A stretch of 64,000 bases of DNA from a virus. Lineage: Duplodnaviria > Heunggongvirae > Uroviricota > Caudoviricetes. Shown here piece after piece: positions 493 to 9,350 of this stretch (position 1 is its first letter; the number at the start of each line of letters is the position of its first letter). Made by a program: the position numbers and the translations under genes. The DNA lies in IMG/VR virus record IMGVR_UViG_2886837984_000001, positions 1 to 64,000 of that record. One strand, 5' to 3'. Under the pieces are notes generated by a model. That model did no database searches. It was not told the DNA's origin and was given only the letters and a program-made list of their open reading frames with translations.

Positions 493-1926
493 TTAGTCGA
501 AGAACAGTCCGTACTCGAAGTCGGAGTCTTCGGCTTTGAGCTCATCCTCTAAAATAGAGGCGAGCAGGTTTCCGTAGGCGAGGGAAGAATATCTGTCCTT
601 ACGCATACGGCCTTTTTCCTTGAGACGGATCTTTCCGTTCAAGATCTCGTACTCAAGGTTGATCATCTCGTTGATGAGTGCGGTCGTCTGAAAGAACGGC
701 GCTAACATGCGCGCTTGCGTCTCTGAGTCGATTTTGTCGAGCTCATATTTATCTTCCAGGTAGTCCCGTCCCTCGAGGTCGTTCGCAAGTAGTTCGATTT
801 TCCCGTTCTCGATTGCGGCACGAAGTTTCGTGGCGATCGTATGGTTGATGTCGACCGTTGCTTTGACCGTATAGATGACCGGGAGAGCCATCGAGGGAGC
901 TCGTTCGGCCAACGCTTCGTCATTGTCCGACTTCCACGCCTCGTATTCGCTATCCCTCTCGTCGTCCCGTGTAACCTTGATCAATTCGTCATAGACCGAC
1001 ATCCCTAGACCGAGGGCATCGAGAACCGCCCAATCTGCTTCGAAATCATAAAAAAGACGCTTAAACATAAGCGCCTGGTAGTCTGAGTTTGCCCCGTTCA
1101 ACGAGTAGATGTTGACGATCTGTCGTTTGTACTCGCCGCCGTTAGGAAGCAACCGGATCAATGTGAAAATCGAGTTATCGTTATCTTTACCGCCGCTAAG
1201 GGCGACGTCTAGCGAGATGATTCGTTTCTCTCCGTTGACCTTCGGTATCTTCATCTTGGCGACACGTTTCACCGACGACGCGATAGTAGCCTCGTCAAAG
1301 AAGATGGCCGGTTTCAAGACTTTCCGACACTTTTGCATGTCTTCGAGACGGAAATAAGCTTTTTCTGACGAACCGTAGAACAGCGCCTCGTACTCCATCG
1401 AGAATGCGATAGGGTCGAAGTCATCCTCTTGCATCACCTGTTCGATGAACTTCGGCGGAAGCAACCCCTCATGGATCGAGAGGTTGTACTCGAGGTTGAC
1501 GGCGCAATAGTCGTCGTTCCCCTTGAACATCTGATAGGCGATCGCCTTCCATTTGTCGTACACCCAATTCGATCGATAGTGAGCGGACGTCAGGATGATC
1601 TCTGCGTTCGGCTCGACGGGGTAGTCTTTGTATTCGGTCTTGTTCTTGAATCCTGGAATCCGCTGAACGTTCAAGAACGGACGGAATATTTTGGTATAAT
1701 TCTCTGCCTTCAAAAGAATCGCTTCATCGGCCACCAATACCTGAGCACGAACGCCTCGGGCGTTTTCGTTGTTCGGTACGACGGTGATGGACGATCCGTT
1801 ATGGAAGAATACGTCGATGTTGCCACCACTGGTTTGAATCTTTTTGATCTCACGGGCGATATTCGGGTACTGCATGAGTTCCTTCTCTATCTTCTCCGTG
1901 ACAATCATCTTGGCTTGCCCTTTGGT
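493..1926 (-). CDS. terL: Terminase large subunit, exon 3. Covers the ATPase from after the P-loop through Walker B (VLVADE) and the nuclease domain.
   Basis: The first part (TKGQAKMIV...GNIDVFFHNGSSI...ARGV...LVADEA) aligns with T4 gp17 AHKGSMSAEVL...GSIELDNGSSI...VRGN...YIEDCAF. The frame is open from 1926 and carries no Walker A of its own. The region immediately upstream is intron sequence ending in G. Confidence 0.85.
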   Translation of the reverse strand, partial: TKGQAKMIVTEKIEKELMQYPNIAREIKKIQTSGGNIDVFFHNGSSITVVPNNENARGVRAQVLVADEAILLKAENYTKIFRPFLNVQRIPGFKNKTEYKDYPVEPNAEIILTSAHYRSNWVYDKWKAIAYQMFKGNDDYCAVNLEYNLSIHEGLLPPKFIEQVMQEDDFDPIAFSMEYEALFYGSSEKAYFRLEDMQKCRKVLKPAIFFDEATIASSVKRVAKMKIPKVNGEKRIISLDVALSGGKDNDNSIFTLIRLLPNGGEYKRQIVNIYSLNGANSDYQALMFKRLFYDFEADWAVLDALGLGMSVYDELIKVTRDDERDSEYEAWKSDNDEALAERAPSMALPVIYTVKATVDINHTIATKLRAAIENGKIELLANDLEGRDYLEDKYELDKIDSETQARMLAPFFQTTALINEMINLEYEILNGKIRLKEKGRMRKDRYSSLAYGNLLASILEDELKAEDSDFEYGLFFD

Positions 1927-3050
1927 CAGTTTTGTTATCGCATGGGCTTTTTATCCCTTGCTTCTACGCCTACATGGTCTCGGCGTAGCTCAGCATACAT
2001 CTTCACCCTCTAGGGGTGTCGGAGACTCGTGCCGGAATTATATTCTTCTTTGCGAAGGTTCATCCGGTATGCGTTACGATGCCGCCTGACTTTTAATCCA
2101 GGCGATTATCTCGGTATTGGGACATCAAACCATATCCTTTTACCGATATTCCCCGATCATAATCTCGGAGATTGCTCACCGAGACGGCGCCGGAAGATTA
2201 GCGTCGAAAAGTTCTTTCATGAACATAGCTTTCTTGAATTTTCTATCTAAGTGAATTTTCGAGTTGAAGTAATGAGCGTTTAAAAAACGAACAATATCTT
2301 CTCTTCTTGTAATCATTAGTTTATCGTTGTTTTTTCGTTTGGCATAAATACTCGATTTAATACCTAGCGAATCAAAATAAACTTTTAATTCGTTGAGAAC
2401 GACATCTTTATATCCCACGATTTCAACAGCGTAACGATACCGCTCATATCCCCGTTTATCTCTTCCGAACGACATATAAAGAGAACCATCTCCGTCAACA
2501 AATCCTCTAACGAAATGTTTCATCATCGCTGGGTTGATGCCGGTGAGACTCATCGCATATGTTTTGTTATGACCTATCCCGTAAGAAATTATGTCATTAC
2601 ATAATTCGGTTGAATGTATGATAATTTCGCAAGAAGGATATTCTTTACCATTAGACTTAGCTATTTTTTCTCTAACTGGAACATTAGCTTTGATGGCGTT
2701 TTTAAATTTCTCAAGATGACCCTTATCTTCGCCCTTTAAGGTTATTTTTAACGCCTTTGCCCCGGTCTTATCAATGATACAACCGTCTGCTGCGATAAAC
2801 CCTAACCAATACGACTTTTCTTCCGAGTCAATGACTTTAAAGAAATCTTTGTCATAATGATACCGAACAGTCATTCGAGAATATTTGGTATCGGTGATCC
2901 CCAAGGATTTGATTTTATGTCTCACGGATATTTTCGATCTGTTAAGAACGTCTCCGATTTCCTGAGCCGACATGTTTTTTGCATTTTCACTTAGATACAA
3001 TTCTTCTTCTTCAGTCCATTTTTTAACTTTTCGCATATATCTCCTTATTC
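1927..3050 (-). other. Group I-like intron 2 of terL. The homing-endonuclease ORF sits at its 5' end, followed by a structured core of about 250 nt.
   Basis: It lies between exon 2 (ends ...IAIVSG at 3051) and exon 3 (starts TKGQAK at 1926). The core at 1930 to 2175 is about 70% identical to intron 1 and shows compensatory hairpin changes. It ends ...AACAAAACUG followed by the exon. Confidence 0.55.
2176..3036 (-). CDS. LAGLIDADG-family homing endonuclease with two motifs and an N-terminal sigma-70 region-4-like HTH. It is encoded inside the intron.
   Basis: Motifs YWLGFIAADG and FVRGFVDGDGSL. The N-terminus EEEELYLSENAKNMSAQEIGDVLNRSKISVRHKIKSLG is HTH-like. It has its own RBS, AAGGAGATATATG. 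Confidence 0.85.
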   Translation of the reverse strand: MRKVKKWTEEEELYLSENAKNMSAQEIGDVLNRSKISVRHKIKSLGITDTKYSRMTVRYHYDKDFFKVIDSEEKSYWLGFIAADGCIIDKTGAKALKITLKGEDKGHLEKFKNAIKANVPVREKIAKSNGKEYPSCEIIIHSTELCNDIISYGIGHNKTYAMSLTGINPAMMKHFVRGFVDGDGSLYMSFGRDKRGYERYRYAVEIVGYKDVVLNELKVYFDSLGIKSSIYAKRKNNDKLMITRREDIVRFLNAHYFNSKIHLDRKFKKAMFMKELFDANLPAPSR

Positions 3051-3128
3051 ACCACTAACGATTGCTATTTTACTTTTTGGGAAAAGCACACATCTCGTAA
3101 TACAGTAAATCGCAGTCAGGAAGGATTT
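3051..3128 (-). CDS. terL: Terminase large subunit, exon 2. A 78-nt micro-exon encoding KSFLTAIYCITRCVLFPKSKIAIVSG, which supplies the Walker A lysine.
   Basis: Joining exon 1 to exon 2 gives AARGLGKS, a Walker A motif. The peptide aligns with T4 gp17 [25 protein letters not shown]. It is flanked by intron ends: ...AAAAGUG upstream, and an in-frame stop right after GGU downstream. Confidence 0.7.
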
Positions 3129-3402
3129 CACTTTTGTTATCGCAAAGGCTTTTTATCCTCTGCTTCTATATCTACATGGTCTTGATATAGGTCAGCATAT
3201 ATTTTCTTCTCGTCTAGAGAAGCCAAGGACTCGTGGGCGTCACTATGTTCTGCCAAAGCAGTTTCAGACATGCCTATGCGTTACGATATCACTCATCTTT
3301 TAAAACGAATGATTATCTCGGTGTTGGGAACGTGCAATCCATATCCTTTCACCGATATTCCTCGGTTTTCCATACTAGATCGCTCTAATAGGGGGCGAAT
3401 CC
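3129..3402 (-). other. Group I-like intron 1 of terL, 274 nt and ORF-less. It is inserted inside the Walker A codons, between GLG and KS.
   Basis: The exon 1 frame hits a stop 6 codons into this segment. The segment is homologous to the core of intron 2 with covarying stems, for example CTACGCC...GGCGTAG versus CTATATC...GATATAG. The 5' splice site follows a U, with GCCC seven nt downstream to pair with GGGU. The 3' end is G. Confidence 0.6.
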
Positions 3403-3672
3403 ACCCAATCCCCTGGCCGCGATGAACGCGGTGATACTACTGTGGAACATCATATAAATCAAAATCATCTGGAACAGCTTTAAGTCGAGACCGAAATAAT
3501 CTTTGATGAAGCGGTGTGGGTTTGCTCGATAGAAAGAACCCCATACCAAAAGCCCTTCATTCAATCTGTCGGCCTTGTTTTTAGGAAGACCGTCTTTTCG
3601 CTGCTTCTTCTCGCGAGAGTATATGTTTCCTCCGCGCTTGTCTTTGTTTCTGTTGACTTGAAACGCACCCAT
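3403..3672 (-). CDS. terL: Terminase large subunit, exon 1. It is the N-terminal 90 aa, ending ...LFQMILIYMMFHSSITAFIAARGLG.
   Basis: The sequence aligns residue for residue with T4 gp17 [24 protein letters not shown], directly before GKT. Its ATG overlaps the stop of the upstream gene. Confidence 0.7.
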
Positions 3673-4532
3673 TACTTGTCACCATCCAAAACGGACTCGA
3701 TATCGTCGTTCTTCGAACGGAGGTCGAGCGCTCGTTGCATCTGGTTGGTGAACCATTTAGTCATGTATTTCTTGATCCCGTCCACATCCTCGAAGATGTC
3801 TAATGGCTCGGGGATAGGACGCTCGTTCTCGATCTTCTCCATAAACTGACCGAAAGTGGCCGTGGAATTCTCGTCAAAACCGGTCTCCTGGAGTGGTTTG
3901 ATACGGGCATCACCCATTTGGCTCGATGCCGTTCTTTGGAGTTTTTCGTACTCAGATACATTTCCGTTAAATAAAGCTTCGTCTGATTTATGCAATGTGA
4001 TCACATAGCTTCGATAAAGGTTTCTTTTGACCGGTGTATCCGCCTCGTAAGCACTCAACATCTCTTGATACATCGCTTCTAGTTTGATCTTCTCTGCCGA
4101 ACTGAAACCGACCCACCGAGTCTTACTTGCCTGGCTCAACTCGTCGTCATCTTCTGATTCGGGGAACTCCGAGTCGTCCCATGTAAGGTTCGACATGCTG
4201 CTGATGCTGATGGATTTGAAGTAGTTCCCTAAGACCGCTTTTCCTTCCGAGCTATTTTCTGCCGCAATCCACTTGTCTTCGATAAACGGTTTGTCCATCC
4301 GTCGAAGCGTGTCGTAGACCGATACCTGGCTCGTCTCGTCAAACTGGTCTAAAATACATGTTTTACAGGTCGGGAATAGGGCGTCAGAATGATACGGGTT
4401 GGAGGATTTATAGTATTCGCTATATTTCCTCTCCTCACCGCAACAGGTACACGTCTTCAGCGTCCCGTTCTTCACCTTGCTGCTCAGACCCTTGAATTTG
4501 TCTGTGTTGACCGGTCTTGCCATGTCTGTCAC
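3672..4532 (-). CDS. Hypothetical protein with an N-terminal Cys4 zinc ribbon. It is a positional candidate for the terminase small subunit.
   Basis: 286-aa ORF with a CTCCGE...CKTC motif. It lies immediately upstream of terL exon 1 and is translationally coupled to it. It has an acidic central region. Confidence 0.6.
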   Translation of the reverse strand: MTDMARPVNTDKFKGLSSKVKNGTLKTCTCCGEERKYSEYYKSSNPYHSDALFPTCKTCILDQFDETSQVSVYDTLRRMDKPFIEDKWIAAENSSEGKAVLGNYFKSISISSMSNLTWDDSEFPESEDDDELSQASKTRWVGFSSAEKIKLEAMYQEMLSAYEADTPVKRNLYRSYVITLHKSDEALFNGNVSEYEKLQRTASSQMGDARIKPLQETGFDENSTATFGQFMEKIENERPIPEPLDIFEDVDGIKKYMTKWFTNQMQRALDLRSKNDDIESVLDGDK

Positions 4533-6083: not shown

Positions 6084-6104
6084 CGTTCATCTCTCCGTTT
6101 CTAT

Positions 6105-6190
6105 GTATGTTCTAATGTTAGAATATATAAGTTCTATAATTAGAAGATTAATGTTCTAACGTTAGACTATTTATGTTCTAATGTTAGAAT
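6105..6190. promoter_or_regulatory. Array of four palindromic sites, TGTTCTAA-YG-TTAGAAT, spaced about 22 bp apart. A candidate operator array upstream of the leftward late operon.
   Basis: Three near-identical copies at about 6106, 6152 and 6174, plus a degenerate TTCTATAATTAGAA at about 6133. They are read directly from the sequence. Confidence 0.45.
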
Positions 6191-6200
6191 TTTGTTTGCA

Positions 6201-6247
6201 AAAAAAAGACTCGCCCTAGTCCGCATCGTTGATAGGCGTGGCGAGTT
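6201..6247 (-). terminator. Putative rho-independent terminator on the minus strand.
   Basis: GACTCGCC and GGCGAGT arms are followed on the minus strand by a U8 run (A8 on plus, 6200 to 6207). Confidence 0.35.
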
Positions 6248-6364
6248 CATGTCTAATTCAATTGCGGAGAGGTCTCCCTAACCGCTTTAGTCCGGGTGTG
6301 GTACAGGACTTTGCTCTGGTGTCGACGAATCGACATGATAGTAGAATCGAATGAAGGGGAGTTT

Positions 6365-6462
6365 GTTGGCCAGGTTTCCCACACCTCATTAGAGTTTTTT
6401 AGCCAGGTGTCTAATCACCTCTCGAATTTTATTTAGCCAGGTGTTTTGCCACCTCACGACAT
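6365..6462. promoter_or_regulatory. Three copies of TTAGCCAGGTGT-N5-6-CACCTC, an inverted repeat AGGTG/CACCT, at a spacing of about 31 bp.
   Basis: The copies sit at about 6369, 6401 and 6433. The palindromes GAGGGTTGACCCTC and GACGTC...GACGTC follow. Confidence 0.35.
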
Positions 6463-7114
6463 TCGATTCTAGAAAGGTGAGGGTTGACCCTCATGATAAA
6501 ATGGCGCCTTTATTGGACGTCAAAAATGAAAATATAACGCCTGAAACCAAAAGTGACGTCCCACGTAGTTGTGGCTTTTTCGTCAGGTTGCGAACCTGAT
6601 CCGGTGATAATTTGTCCGCAACGAGGCAGGACGATGTATGCACTCAATTGTGCGGTGCGCTAGGCACAAAATATAAAGACCCGACGAGGTTCGCTTCTAT
6701 GCTAGGCGTGTCGGGTTCCGGTAAATCAAATAAGACCCCAAAGGGTCGTGACAAATTTCTTTGCCACCAAATTGGTCTTTACAAATCAAATTTGCACCAC
6801 TTAAGGCGCGGGTTATCCAAATGAGGACACCCTCAATATAGAAGGCTCGAAGTGTTTCGCATATTCAGAGGCGTTTTCGAACTACTGTTCTAAAAAATAG
6901 ATGACGCCCCGTCTACGCCTTAGGGGGATAGCTTTCGTAGCATTGTTTTCCTTTTTTCAAAGCCGCTACGCCGGAGCAGGTTTCATCTCTAACCCGCTAG
7001 TTTTGAACACCCATTCGCCCACACAGCCTTTTGTCCGAAGTCTCGTTGACAGTCGATTGGATCGATACAAGATGACCTTCGGGGGTCTGAGTAGGAATTC
7101 TGGATGCCAAATTT

Positions 7115-7167
7115 GATAAAAACTCGGCTTACAGCCCGGGGAATGATAGACAGGCCGAGTTTTTATC
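7115..7167. terminator. Candidate bidirectional terminator hairpin.
   Basis: AAAAACTCGGC ... GCCGAGTTTTT stem, flanked by an A-run and a T-run. Confidence 0.4.
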
Positions 7168-7395
7168 AATAAATACGCTGTATTGTGTGTCTTCGCCTTG
7201 GCGGACAAGCAAATTAATCAGCGTTGACAGCCGTGGCTGTGAAGTAAAACGGGCCACTTAACTTGTTTTGAAGTTATCCTTCTAGCAAGCCACCTCTGGG
7301 ACTTTGTTGAGGTCTTTCCTCTAATGTTGAGTCTTCACGACTCACATATCCGAAGATACGCATCTTTAATGTGGTGCTGACTAATCAGCATGATA

Positions 7396-7668
7396 TTAGT
7401 TTTTGCAGCAACAAGGACTTTCGACTTTAAAACCTCTTGCTTTAACCCGCTCGGCTTGAATGTCGATAGGTTGATTTTTATTTTCTTCGAGATCTTTAAT
7501 GTGGTTTTCGAGTTCTGCAAGACGTTGCTTATATTCGCCTAAGTAATCTTTACGGTTTTGTAGCAACTCTTCCTGAAAATTAATCTCTGACTCTGTACTT
7601 CTAATTTCAGCATTAATACGTTTTGCTTCCCTTTGCAGAGTGCTAATCACGGCTTTCATCTTCATCAT
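7396..7668 (-). CDS. Hypothetical coiled-coil protein, 90 aa.
   Basis: It is the only sizeable ORF in the 2-kb non-coding hub and has a weak RBS. Its heptad-like content is charged. Confidence 0.35.
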   Translation of the reverse strand: MMKMKAVISTLQREAKRINAEIRSTESEINFQEELLQNRKDYLGEYKQRLAELENHIKDLEENKNQPIDIQAERVKARGFKVESPCCCKN

Positions 7669-8099: not shown

Positions 8100-9350
8100 T
8101 TACAACTTGTTCGCAAACATCTTACATGTCTCAGAACGCTCATCTTGCGTGAGCACCACAATCGCACATTGCGGATCGCCTTTAAGTTTGTTCACGGCCT
8201 CGATGATGCCCGAAGATTTCACGAACGCATCGTTCGTTTGAGCGAAGTCGCCCGTAAAGACGATCTTCGAATCCTTGCCGACACGCGTACCACAGTTTCG
8301 AATTTCTTTTAAACTCAAATCCGAACACTCGTCCACCAAGATCAATGTCGAATCCATCGATAAGCCTTTGACAAAGCTGATTTCGTGTTTCGTGAGCTGT
8401 CCGTTCTCCGACATATGTACAGGGTCTTGGATAGGGTCGTCTAAATGTTGTACGAAAGTCTCGTAGAACACGCCCATCTTCTCGTCCATGTCGCCAGGTA
8501 GGAATCCGACGCTCGATACATCTGCTTTACGCATGAGTGCGATCCGACCAAAGTCGCCTTTTCGAATCGTTTTCTCTTGCGCCATCTTCACCGACATCAT
8601 CGTCTTGCCTGAGCCAGCCAATCCTAAGATGAATACCGATGTGATATCCGGGTTGTTCAAAGCATCCAACGCACAAGCTTGTTCGGCGTTACGCGGTTTG
8701 ACGACACGATATTCGGGGAGTTTGATTTCCACGAACGACTCGCCGTTCCAACGTCGCACCATCTCTTTGAATTTCTGTTGTGACGGGTCGTCGATGATAA
8801 CATATTGGTTGATCTCCAACTTCATCTCATCTGCCACCGTCTTGTCGTCCATCCATACTCGGTCGATCAACTCTGCTTCCACGTCATCGTTCGGGTCGAG
8901 TTTTGTATATCCCTTGTATGAATACACATCCGTCGACACTTGCTGAAGCTGTTTTACTTCGACTCCGAATCCATGCGCTTGAATCCCGAGCAACATATCT
9001 TCCGTAATCAATCCGTACTCAGGGTTTTGAAGCAGACACTCTAAGAATTGGTTGTCCACATACTGTTCATCATATTCGCCGTGTTCAAGTAGCTTGTTCA
9101 ATCGATAAGGTTTCGTGTTGTACTCGAGACGGTCTTGATGTAACGTCAACCAATGCTGTGCGACACGCGCACGATAGGCTAGGTCACTCGACCGTGACGA
9201 CTTGTGTTTCTCGATCTCTCGTAAAAGCATGGTCGTCACGACGACCTCATTCGGATTCAAGGCGCTGATGTTATTCAGCACCACATTCGTATCGACTACA
9301 AACTTCTTCATCTTCGTTTCGGTCGTCATCATGTTATCCCCGATCATCAT
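8100..9350 (-). CDS. phoH: PhoH-like ATPase with an N-terminal PIN domain, the PhoH2 or YlaK type.
   Basis: PIN motif KKFVVDTNVVL. PhoH Walker A GLAGSGKT and LILVDECS. Confidence 0.8.
   Translation of the reverse strand: MMIGDNMMTTETKMKKFVVDTNVVLNNISALNPNEVVVTTMLLREIEKHKSSRSSDLAYRARVAQHWLTLHQDRLEYNTKPYRLNKLLEHGEYDEQYVDNQFLECLLQNPEYGLITEDMLLGIQAHGFGVEVKQLQQVSTDVYSYKGYTKLDPNDDVEAELIDRVWMDDKTVADEMKLEINQYVIIDDPSQQKFKEMVRRWNGESFVEIKLPEYRVVKPRNAEQACALDALNNPDITSVFILGLAGSGKTMMSVKMAQEKTIRKGDFGRIALMRKADVSSVGFLPGDMDEKMGVFYETFVQHLDDPIQDPVHMSENGQLTKHEISFVKGLSMDSTLILVDECSDLSLKEIRNCGTRVGKDSKIVFTGDFAQTNDAFVKSSGIIEAVNKLKGDPQCAIVVLTQDERSETCKMFANKL

Follow-up and report, generated by a model that had tools for sequence, protein, structure and literature searches.

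The large terminase subunit gene (terL) in a 64,000-nucleotide stretch of Caudoviricetes DNA (IMG/VR record IMGVR_UViG_2886837984_000001, positions 1 to 64,000; hereafter the window) is that of an SPbeta-like phage or prophage and is split by two group I introns of subgroup IA. Both introns, here called intron 1 and intron 2, are members of one widespread mobile intron family of Firmicutes phages, and neither looks to have been copied recently from the other. The reading favored here, at a probability of roughly 0.85, is that shared family membership explains their likeness: two nearby, conserved and recurrently used sites in the P-loop region would have been entered separately by related introns, which later acquired a mosaic structure.

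Read along the minus strand, terL begins with exon 1 (3403..3672; amino acids 1-90 according to the open reading frame (ORF) listing and the sequence), which ends in ...ARGLG with GGGU as its last bases. Intron 1 (3129..3402), an ORF-less subgroup-IA group I intron of 274 nt, occupies site 1, where it separates the Walker A codons for Gly and Lys. Exon 2 (3051..3128) comprises 78 nt or 26 codons, and its translation, KSFLTAIYCITRCVLFPKSKIAIVSG, holds the Walker A Lys-Ser. Intron 2 (1927..3050), a group I intron of 1124 nt, lies at site 2, between ...VSG and TKGQ..., and is followed by exon 3 (493..1926), which supplies amino acids 117-593 and the stop codon. Joined together, the three exons give a TerL of 593 amino acids that matches Terminase_6N (Pfam) and PHROG terminase families and aligns in one piece with the uninterrupted YonF of SPbeta (amino acids 4-582, 42% identity). 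Both exon joints are free of gaps against ten intron-less homologues, and the exon 2 segment is conserved and contiguous in uninterrupted terL genes. The junctions of both introns are fixed by this gapless alignment to intron-less alleles, and removal of both introns leaves a reading frame that is colinear with the uninterrupted homologues, exact to the codon. The 3' ends, ...AAAAGUG/AAAUCC for intron 1 and ...AAAACUG/ACCAAA for intron 2, both carry the terminal G, and in each 5' exon the last base is a U that faces a guide-sequence G. In-frame stop codons follow shortly past each 5' junction.

The ribozyme parts of the two introns are identical at 180/263 positions (68%) on the minus strand, in line with the initial annotation, which had aligned the cores over about 250 nt at about 70% identity. 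Its recognition of the second element also stands, with the 3' end moved from 1930 to the terminal G at 1927 and the start of the core from 2175 to the start of the guide at 2188. The 5' splice site of intron 2 lies at 3051/3050, and its guide begins inside the 3' end of an endonuclease ORF. The core of intron 2 (1927..2188, minus strand) runs from the guide GCCG through P2-P9.1 to the terminal G and, with verified helix coordinates, scores 325 bits with R1, a covariance model built from introns 1 and 2; intron 1 scores 321 bits. The secondary structure was derived by hand and then tested on the two-sequence alignment, where 101/102 cells are standard pairs. Between the introns, 51 pairs could be aligned, with 14 changed on both sides, 5 changed on one side (wobble) and 1 broken, while a control in which the 3' partner was slid by 1-3 columns retained 0-2 double changes and 34-44% pairing. 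Folding energies of the two cores were likewise low against shuffled sequence (z = -3.85 and -4.75).

Support for the same helices came from a de novo RNAalifold run on a MAFFT alignment of both introns and their orthologues from a close relative, L229 (related loci are given here as L and a number). This alignment was fitted to no model and is thus independent of R1; it returned 56 pairs, 27 of them compensatory, and recovered P2, P3, P4, P5, P6/P6a, P8, P9 and P9.1. In a 30-sequence family alignment, 92.7% of 1453 cells were paired, compared with 31-41% when the 3' partners were slid, and 52/59 pairs contained double changes; the 30-member alignments were fitted to R1 and hence biased towards the model, but the margin is large and the RNAalifold run stands independently of it. 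P7 (GCAUA/UAUGC) crosses P3 as a pseudoknot and covaries: an invariant G-C pair (24/24) lies beside the bulged base, and the pair across the bulged C or A changes between A-U (18) and G-C (6). Two pairings from an initial two-sequence RNAalifold run (the guide with GCG near the 3' end, and UGCU with AGCA) were discarded in favor of P7 and P9.1, which covary throughout the family.

The hairpins that had first drawn attention correspond to P9 and P8, and their paired changes are real. P9 reads CUAUAUC-AAGACCAUGUA-GAUAUAG in intron 1 (3166..3190, minus strand), with an unusual 11-nt loop, and CUACGCC-GAGACCAUGUA-GGCGUAG in intron 2 (1964..1988, minus strand), with three compensatory stem pairs relative to intron 1 and a nearly identical loop. 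P8 is CUUCUC-UAGAC-GAGAAG in intron 1 (3206..3222, minus strand) and CACCC-CUAGA-GGGUG in intron 2 (2004..2018, minus strand), again with three compensatory pairs. A P7.1/P7.1a insertion lies between P7 and the 3' strand of P3 in intron 1 (3236..3274, minus strand), and the corresponding insertion of intron 2 (2032..2067, minus strand) is of an unlike sequence type, closest to those of the PJN02 intron and the L041 site-2 intron. The outer and inner helices of this insertion covary across the family, with 8/9 pairs compensatory among 14 members, and the family is therefore placed in subgroup IA; the nested P7.1/P7.1a arrangement looks IA1-like. Taken together, the covariation supports a predicted full group I fold with P2-P9.1, the P3/P7 pseudoknot and the subgroup-IA P7.1 insertion. 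The earlier proposal that the covariation attests to a conserved RNA fold thus holds up well above background, as judged from the slid controls and RNAalifold. Of the two findings that had been named as decisive against it, covariation statistics proved to lie above background and protein-coding paralogy is ruled out by the stop codons, the lack of a conserved ORF and the compensatory stem substitutions.

The guide sequences fit their own sites, as had been proposed. The guide of intron 1, GCCC (3393..3396, minus strand), as read from the sequence, would form P1 with the exon 1 end GGGU, and GCCG of intron 2 (2188..2185) pairs with the exon 2 end UGGU. Both guides occupy homologous alignment columns and differ in one informative position, G-C versus U.G; because this is a single informative pair, the match between guide and exon is weak evidence when taken alone. 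It is backed by the same GCCG guide in the ORF-less site-2 introns of L039/L041 and L229. For intron 1, a P10 of 5 bp can be formed between GGAUU (3402..3398) and AAUCC of exon 2.

Two observations nevertheless tell against the assignment of both elements to group I. P1 is short in both introns, at 4 bp, and intron 2 has a weak P10 of about 2 bp. In addition, the Rfam model Intron_gpI (RF00028), which describes the same overall group I architecture as that of the window introns, matched neither of them in a search of the whole window at the gathering threshold and gave no score in 1700-3700 even at E = 10. The same model misses the JCL1032, PJN02, phi116 and Oenococcus introns at E = 1, yet passes its threshold on the most distant family member, the terL intron of Streptococcus thermophilus phage P4761 (L007; 52.5 bits), at the same coordinates as R1. 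Because RF00028 detects L007 and misses JCL1032, its silence reflects the reach of the model and is no evidence against group I. Besides positions 1927-3402 of the window, loci L001, L002, L006 and L016 hold members of this subfamily that Rfam 15 Intron_gpI misses.

That the elements are no introns at all, and instead repeated intergenic or regulatory sequence or protein-coding paralogues lying between three genes, is scarcely credible. Such a view could draw on the lack of an Rfam match and on gene callers, which list these terL pieces as separate ORFs in related records. It is countered by the in-frame stops after each 5' junction, by the absence of a conserved ORF from either element, by substitutions that are concentrated as compensatory stem pairs and by the restoration of a colinear TerL upon removal. 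Furthermore, the 26 amino acids of exon 2 hold the essential Walker A Lys and could not work as a separate protein.

Searches beyond the window place both introns in a large family. Within the window R1 finds no copies other than these two. Searched against phage genomes, blastn gives partial matches to the introns in 146 and 105 records, and R1 relatives of 52-150 bits reside in genes for terL, tape-measure and tail proteins, DNA polymerase, polymerase or primase, gyrase and RecD helicase. By blastn and R1, the family extends to phages of Bacillus, Staphylococcus, Lactobacillus, Oenococcus, Clostridium, Streptococcus and others. The RecD helicase member is found in Bacillus phage PJN02, and the tail or tape-measure members in Oenococcus, Arcanobacterium, Clostridium and Staphylococcus 6ec phages. 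Members within terL occur in Lactobacillus JCL1032, S. thermophilus phages, Staphylococcus Sextaecvirus and Mammaliicoccus phi116; the JCL1032 intron is annotated in GenBank as a joined coding sequence. In many related records the terL pieces are annotated as separate genes. A megablast of the locus against 50,697 phage records returned only a chance match of 34 nt, and exact-pattern scans with GGAATATCGGTRAAAGGATATGG and with a pattern specific to the P9 loop (L9) found nothing in viral contigs. Matches of the L9 pattern in 5 metagenome contigs were set aside as chance matches, without an R1 match or similarity to the window, as were at least 118 chance matches to the pattern GGTRAAAGGATATGG, where the one R1 match in 80 loci had no relation to where the pattern lay.

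Both insertion sites are used repeatedly. Site 1 is filled by family members in phi116, L085, L025, L093, L101, L105, L099/L100, Sextaecvirus and JCL1032, and the intron of L103 lies two codons upstream of it. Site 2 (VSG/TKG) is filled in L039-L041, and apart from these and L229 the site-2 intron was seen nowhere else. A third family site near amino acid 425 is occupied in L102, L082 and L076. Two of these loci show pairs of R1 matches about 0.8-0.9 kb apart (L082:3361-3548 and 4332-4516; L076:6252-6439 and 7318-7432, both IMG/VR), each pair of which is probably one intron with its core split by an inserted ORF and not two introns. In the terL gene of a Metabacillus arenae prophage, an insertion of about 1 kb at amino acids 291/293 (L023:5858-6894) has no R1 match; an intron of a different type or a free-standing endonuclease could account for it.

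Most SPbeta-type terL genes are intron-less. The search for intron-less, one-intron and two-intron terL alleles that the initial annotation had suggested was carried out, and genes with 0, 1, 2 or 3 introns were found. Close relatives came from a protein-cluster search and contig look-ups; single-protein scans of genomes and viral contigs gave TerL proteins of at most 49% identity. Three relatives whose TerL is 73-76% identical (L232, L233 and L234) have no terL intron, L231 has one at amino acids 189/190, and L230 has two, at 189/190 and at site 1, the latter from a different lineage of the family. L229, with exons about 96% identical at the protein level, has three introns; those at sites 1 and 2 are orthologous to introns 1 and 2 at about 84-86% DNA identity (about 84% for the site-1 pair). 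Both introns were thus in place before the window phage and L229 split. The intron at amino acids 189/190 is a group I intron (L229:4666-5030, L230:4140-4481 and L231:999-1338) that is unrelated to the R1 family, having no R1 match and scoring 68.6 bits with RF00028 in L229; exon 3 of the window is uninterrupted at this position.

Against this background, the data do not support the earlier suggestion of a duplication inside terL to a second site at a distance of 78 nt: over its full length, each intron is nearer to an intron of another phage. On well-occupied columns introns 1 and 2 share 67% identity, compared with 70% between intron 1 and the Oenococcus tail-gene intron and 71% between intron 2 and the RecD-helicase intron of PJN02. 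Full-length neighbor-joining trees placed the two introns with these same partners and recovered them as sisters in 10/300 bootstraps, and in 0/300 after the L229 orthologues were added, while the orthologous pairs of window and L229 were supported in 300/300 and 297/300. A regional scan separated the introns into parts with different affinities: in the P3-P7 core, P5 and P9 each is closest to the other, and their mutual rank falls to 6th to 16th in P1-P2-J2/3, P7.1 and P3'-P8. For J2/3 and P7.1, two distinct types exist, and each window intron shares its type with introns of other phages. A runs test on intron 2, intron 1 and the L041 site-2 intron indicated a mosaic (0/5000), and tests on two other triplets were marginal (P = 0.054 and 0.061).

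Intragenic duplication would have one intron moved by 78 nt, through reverse splicing into a GGU-ending site or through ectopic homing, with the guide adapting afterwards, and we consider it doubtful. Several features fit such an event. On the core, the two introns are mutual nearest neighbors, at a Jukes-Cantor distance of 0.26 versus at least 0.34 to any other intron, and they have in common the 11-nt L9 loop and, in P5, the sequence GGAUAUGG. Since GGU forms the end of both target sites, the guide would need to change at one base only, and a published precedent exists in Bacillus cereus prophages, where TMP-IVS1/IVS2 are 80% identical with adapted guides (PMC2504315). Set against this are the full-length trees, the low mutual ranks of the peripheral domains and the mosaic character of intron 2. 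Sites 1 and 2 are each used independently in other phages, site 1 of L230 holds a different lineage of the family, and their 68% identity falls within the 55-71% that is background for the family.

The reading as separate colonization has in turn to face evidence that weighs against it. With about 250 columns, which are saturated, the neighbor-joining trees have poor resolution. Trees from core-only columns group introns 1 and 2 in 247/300 bootstraps (82%), or 178/300 (59%) with the L229 orthologues, a support that is inflated because the core partition was picked after the regional scan had been seen. Moreover, introns 1 and 2 and their L229 orthologues share the L9 loop and P5 sequence, which among the other sampled members are found only partly, in phiR1-37; a common origin of the cores fits this better than fully independent arrival. 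Possibly, an ancient duplication was followed by an exchange of peripheral domains. One version of this, in which the cores descend from one ancestor that moved between the two GGU-ending sites 78 nt apart and P2, P7.1 and P8 were later swapped with other phage introns, is rather improbable as a whole; it may include replacement of the L9 GNRA contact by an L9-P5 pairing. If true, cores of a single ancestor with swapped periphery would amount to traceable modular shuffling among mobile ribozymes.

Alternatively, the introns could have been gained independently and then homogenized by gene conversion across the 78 nt. A similar core beside a dissimilar periphery is the pattern expected from partial gene conversion. 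The distances do not follow this expectation: over the full length, Jukes-Cantor values are 0.43 (window) and 0.59 (L229) within genomes versus 0.53 and 0.46 across genomes, and on the core they are 0.26 and 0.34 within versus 0.33 and 0.27 across. The L5 and L9 sequences that the introns share occur in both L229 orthologues too and are therefore older than the split. Ongoing gene conversion between introns 1 and 2 is rejected, as within-genome distances are not consistently below those between genomes, and concerted evolution in general appears very unlikely.

The L9 loop deserves separate mention. In most family members L9 is a GNRA tetraloop, mostly GAAA and also GCGA or GUAA, whereas in both window introns and both L229 orthologues it is an 11-nt loop, (A/G)AGACCAUGUA. 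In intron 1 (L9 at 3166-3190) a stretch of 6 nt, CCAUGU, is complementary to AUAUGG of the P5 domain (3346..3327), a length reached by 39/500 shuffles. In intron 2 (L9 at 1964-1988) the complementarity to the P5 domain AUAUGGUUU (2120-2137), AUAUGG(UUU), extends over 9 nt and was reached by 8/500 shuffles. The gyrase intron of phiR1-37 has a weaker L9-P5 complementarity. Judging from these complementary letters, a loop-loop pairing of 6-9 bp between L9 (AGACCAUGU) and P5 (AUAUGGUUU) may replace the usual contact of an L9 GNRA tetraloop; the complementary stretches are invariant in all four sequences and hence uninformative for covariation.

Intron 2 owes its greater length to a gene for a LAGLIDADG homing endonuclease (2176..3036, minus strand; 861 nt, 286 amino acids), which has its own GGAG ribosome-binding site. 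Its product matches LAGLIDADG_3 (1.2e-12) and LAGLIDADG_1 (3.7e-7) of Pfam and the PHROG 4645 endonuclease (2.8e-46), and the translation shows the motifs LGFIAADGC and VRGFVDGDGS. With the 5' splice site on one side and the guide on the other, the ORF falls within the P1 loop; it ends in codons that overlap the guide and the 5' strand of P2, with the stop codon inside P2. Homologues of 26-33% identity lie likewise upstream of the core in site-1 terL, helicase, polymerase and gyrase introns. The site-2 orthologue in L229 (86% identical, about 275 nt) has a P1 loop of 9 nt without an ORF. The site-2 intron is thus polymorphic for the endonuclease, which is present in the window and absent from L229 (window 3030-3050 and 2163-2200 compared with L229:4172-4205). 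Intron 1 carries no endonuclease.

What this arrangement would mean for splicing activity, homing and the order of events can be outlined from established group I chemistry and from the comparisons above. Each intron would fold into the P1-P10 architecture, the last exon base U would pair with the guide G in P1, and external guanosine bound in P7 would attack the 5' junction. The freed exon would then attack after the terminal G, so that exons 1, 2 and 3 are joined into an intact TerL of 593 amino acids. Homing is presumably driven by the intron 2 endonuclease, through cleavage of terL alleles that lack the intron in co-infecting relatives. Colonization of both sites would predate the divergence of the window phage and its nearest sampled relative, and a later mosaic history would account for cores that are alike and for P2, P7.1 and P8 with different affinities.

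Comparable arrangements are known. In B. cereus-group prophages one tape-measure gene holds two IA2 introns, TMP-IVS1 and TMP-IVS2, that are 80% identical overall and 90-92% identical in the P3-P7 core (Tourasse and Kolsto 2008, PMC2504315); the same study described guides adapted to each site and mosaic conservation of core and periphery, and it reported that the terminase intron term-IVS1 is homologous to the tape-measure introns and listed sequence matches to the JCL1032 intron. Like TMP-IVS1/2, the window introns are related subgroup-IA introns at two sites of one phage structural gene with P1 and guides that match their sites. They differ from them in being only 68% identical and not mutually closest over their full length, in residing in an SPbeta-like terL and in the LAGLIDADG gene in the P1 loop of one of them. 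In orf142 of Staphylococcus phage Twort, as far as the account in PMC10136302 of Landthaler and Shub (1999) goes, three introns are present, of which I2 and I3 are highly similar IA2 introns around an exon of 23 nt, and exon skipping was observed. For I2/I3, as for TMP-IVS1/2, an origin by duplication within the gene has been proposed. The window resembles this case, in the features that account gives, in having several group I introns and a short internal exon in one late gene, while its internal exon is longer (78 nt) and in frame, its introns are much more diverged and splicing is read from sequence. Should the in-frame exon 2 be skipped here as well, one might speculate that the loss of the Walker A lysine would give a TerL isoform that is dead as an ATPase.

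The terL introns of JCL1032, Sextaecvirus and phi116 belong to the same RNA family (R1 64-111 bits) and interrupt the gene at the same point as intron 1, before the Lys codon of GK(S/T), and several of them carry a homologous endonuclease upstream of the core. Unlike in the window, there is one family intron per gene in these phages, whereas intron 1 of the window has no endonuclease and site 2 is filled as well. Furthermore, terL genes of Bastillevirinae are split by two or three mostly IA-like group I introns, many of which have an endonuclease loop within the ribozyme; for SIOphi, skipping of an exon was reported, and DNA polymerase introns also occur in this group (NAR 2025, PMC11878797). 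The window differs from these Herelleviridae myoviruses in its SPbeta-like siphovirus context, and the likeness to them is one of described features. As for how introns reach new sites, reverse splicing has been reviewed as a plausible and unproven route (PMC3984707).

As in relatives, the genes next to terL are late genes of SPbeta type (YonG, YonJ and YonK families). A region of about 1.3 kb (window about 6090-7390), with the late-gene block on one side and a PhoH/PIN-like gene (8100-9350) on the other, has no convincing ORF on either strand. A sub-threshold match to the Rfam abiF RNA lies at 6209-6245 on the minus strand (31 bits versus a gathering threshold of 37, E = 0.005). Across the 64-kb window, searches returned no tRNA and no Rfam match at the gathering threshold.

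The window is a new instance of a known arrangement, genuine but ordinary for phage biology, and the intron pair leaves the knowledge of group I introns unchanged. It has value for annotation, in that gene calling breaks terL into two to four separate ORFs, both here and in many related contigs, and a dedicated covariance model would repair the annotation of terminase, tape-measure and polymerase genes in many Firmicutes phages. For the biology of the SPbeta-like phages, the series of close relatives with 0-3 terL introns, with or without an endonuclease, lends itself to work on the homing cycle and on the competition that introns mediate between co-infecting phages.

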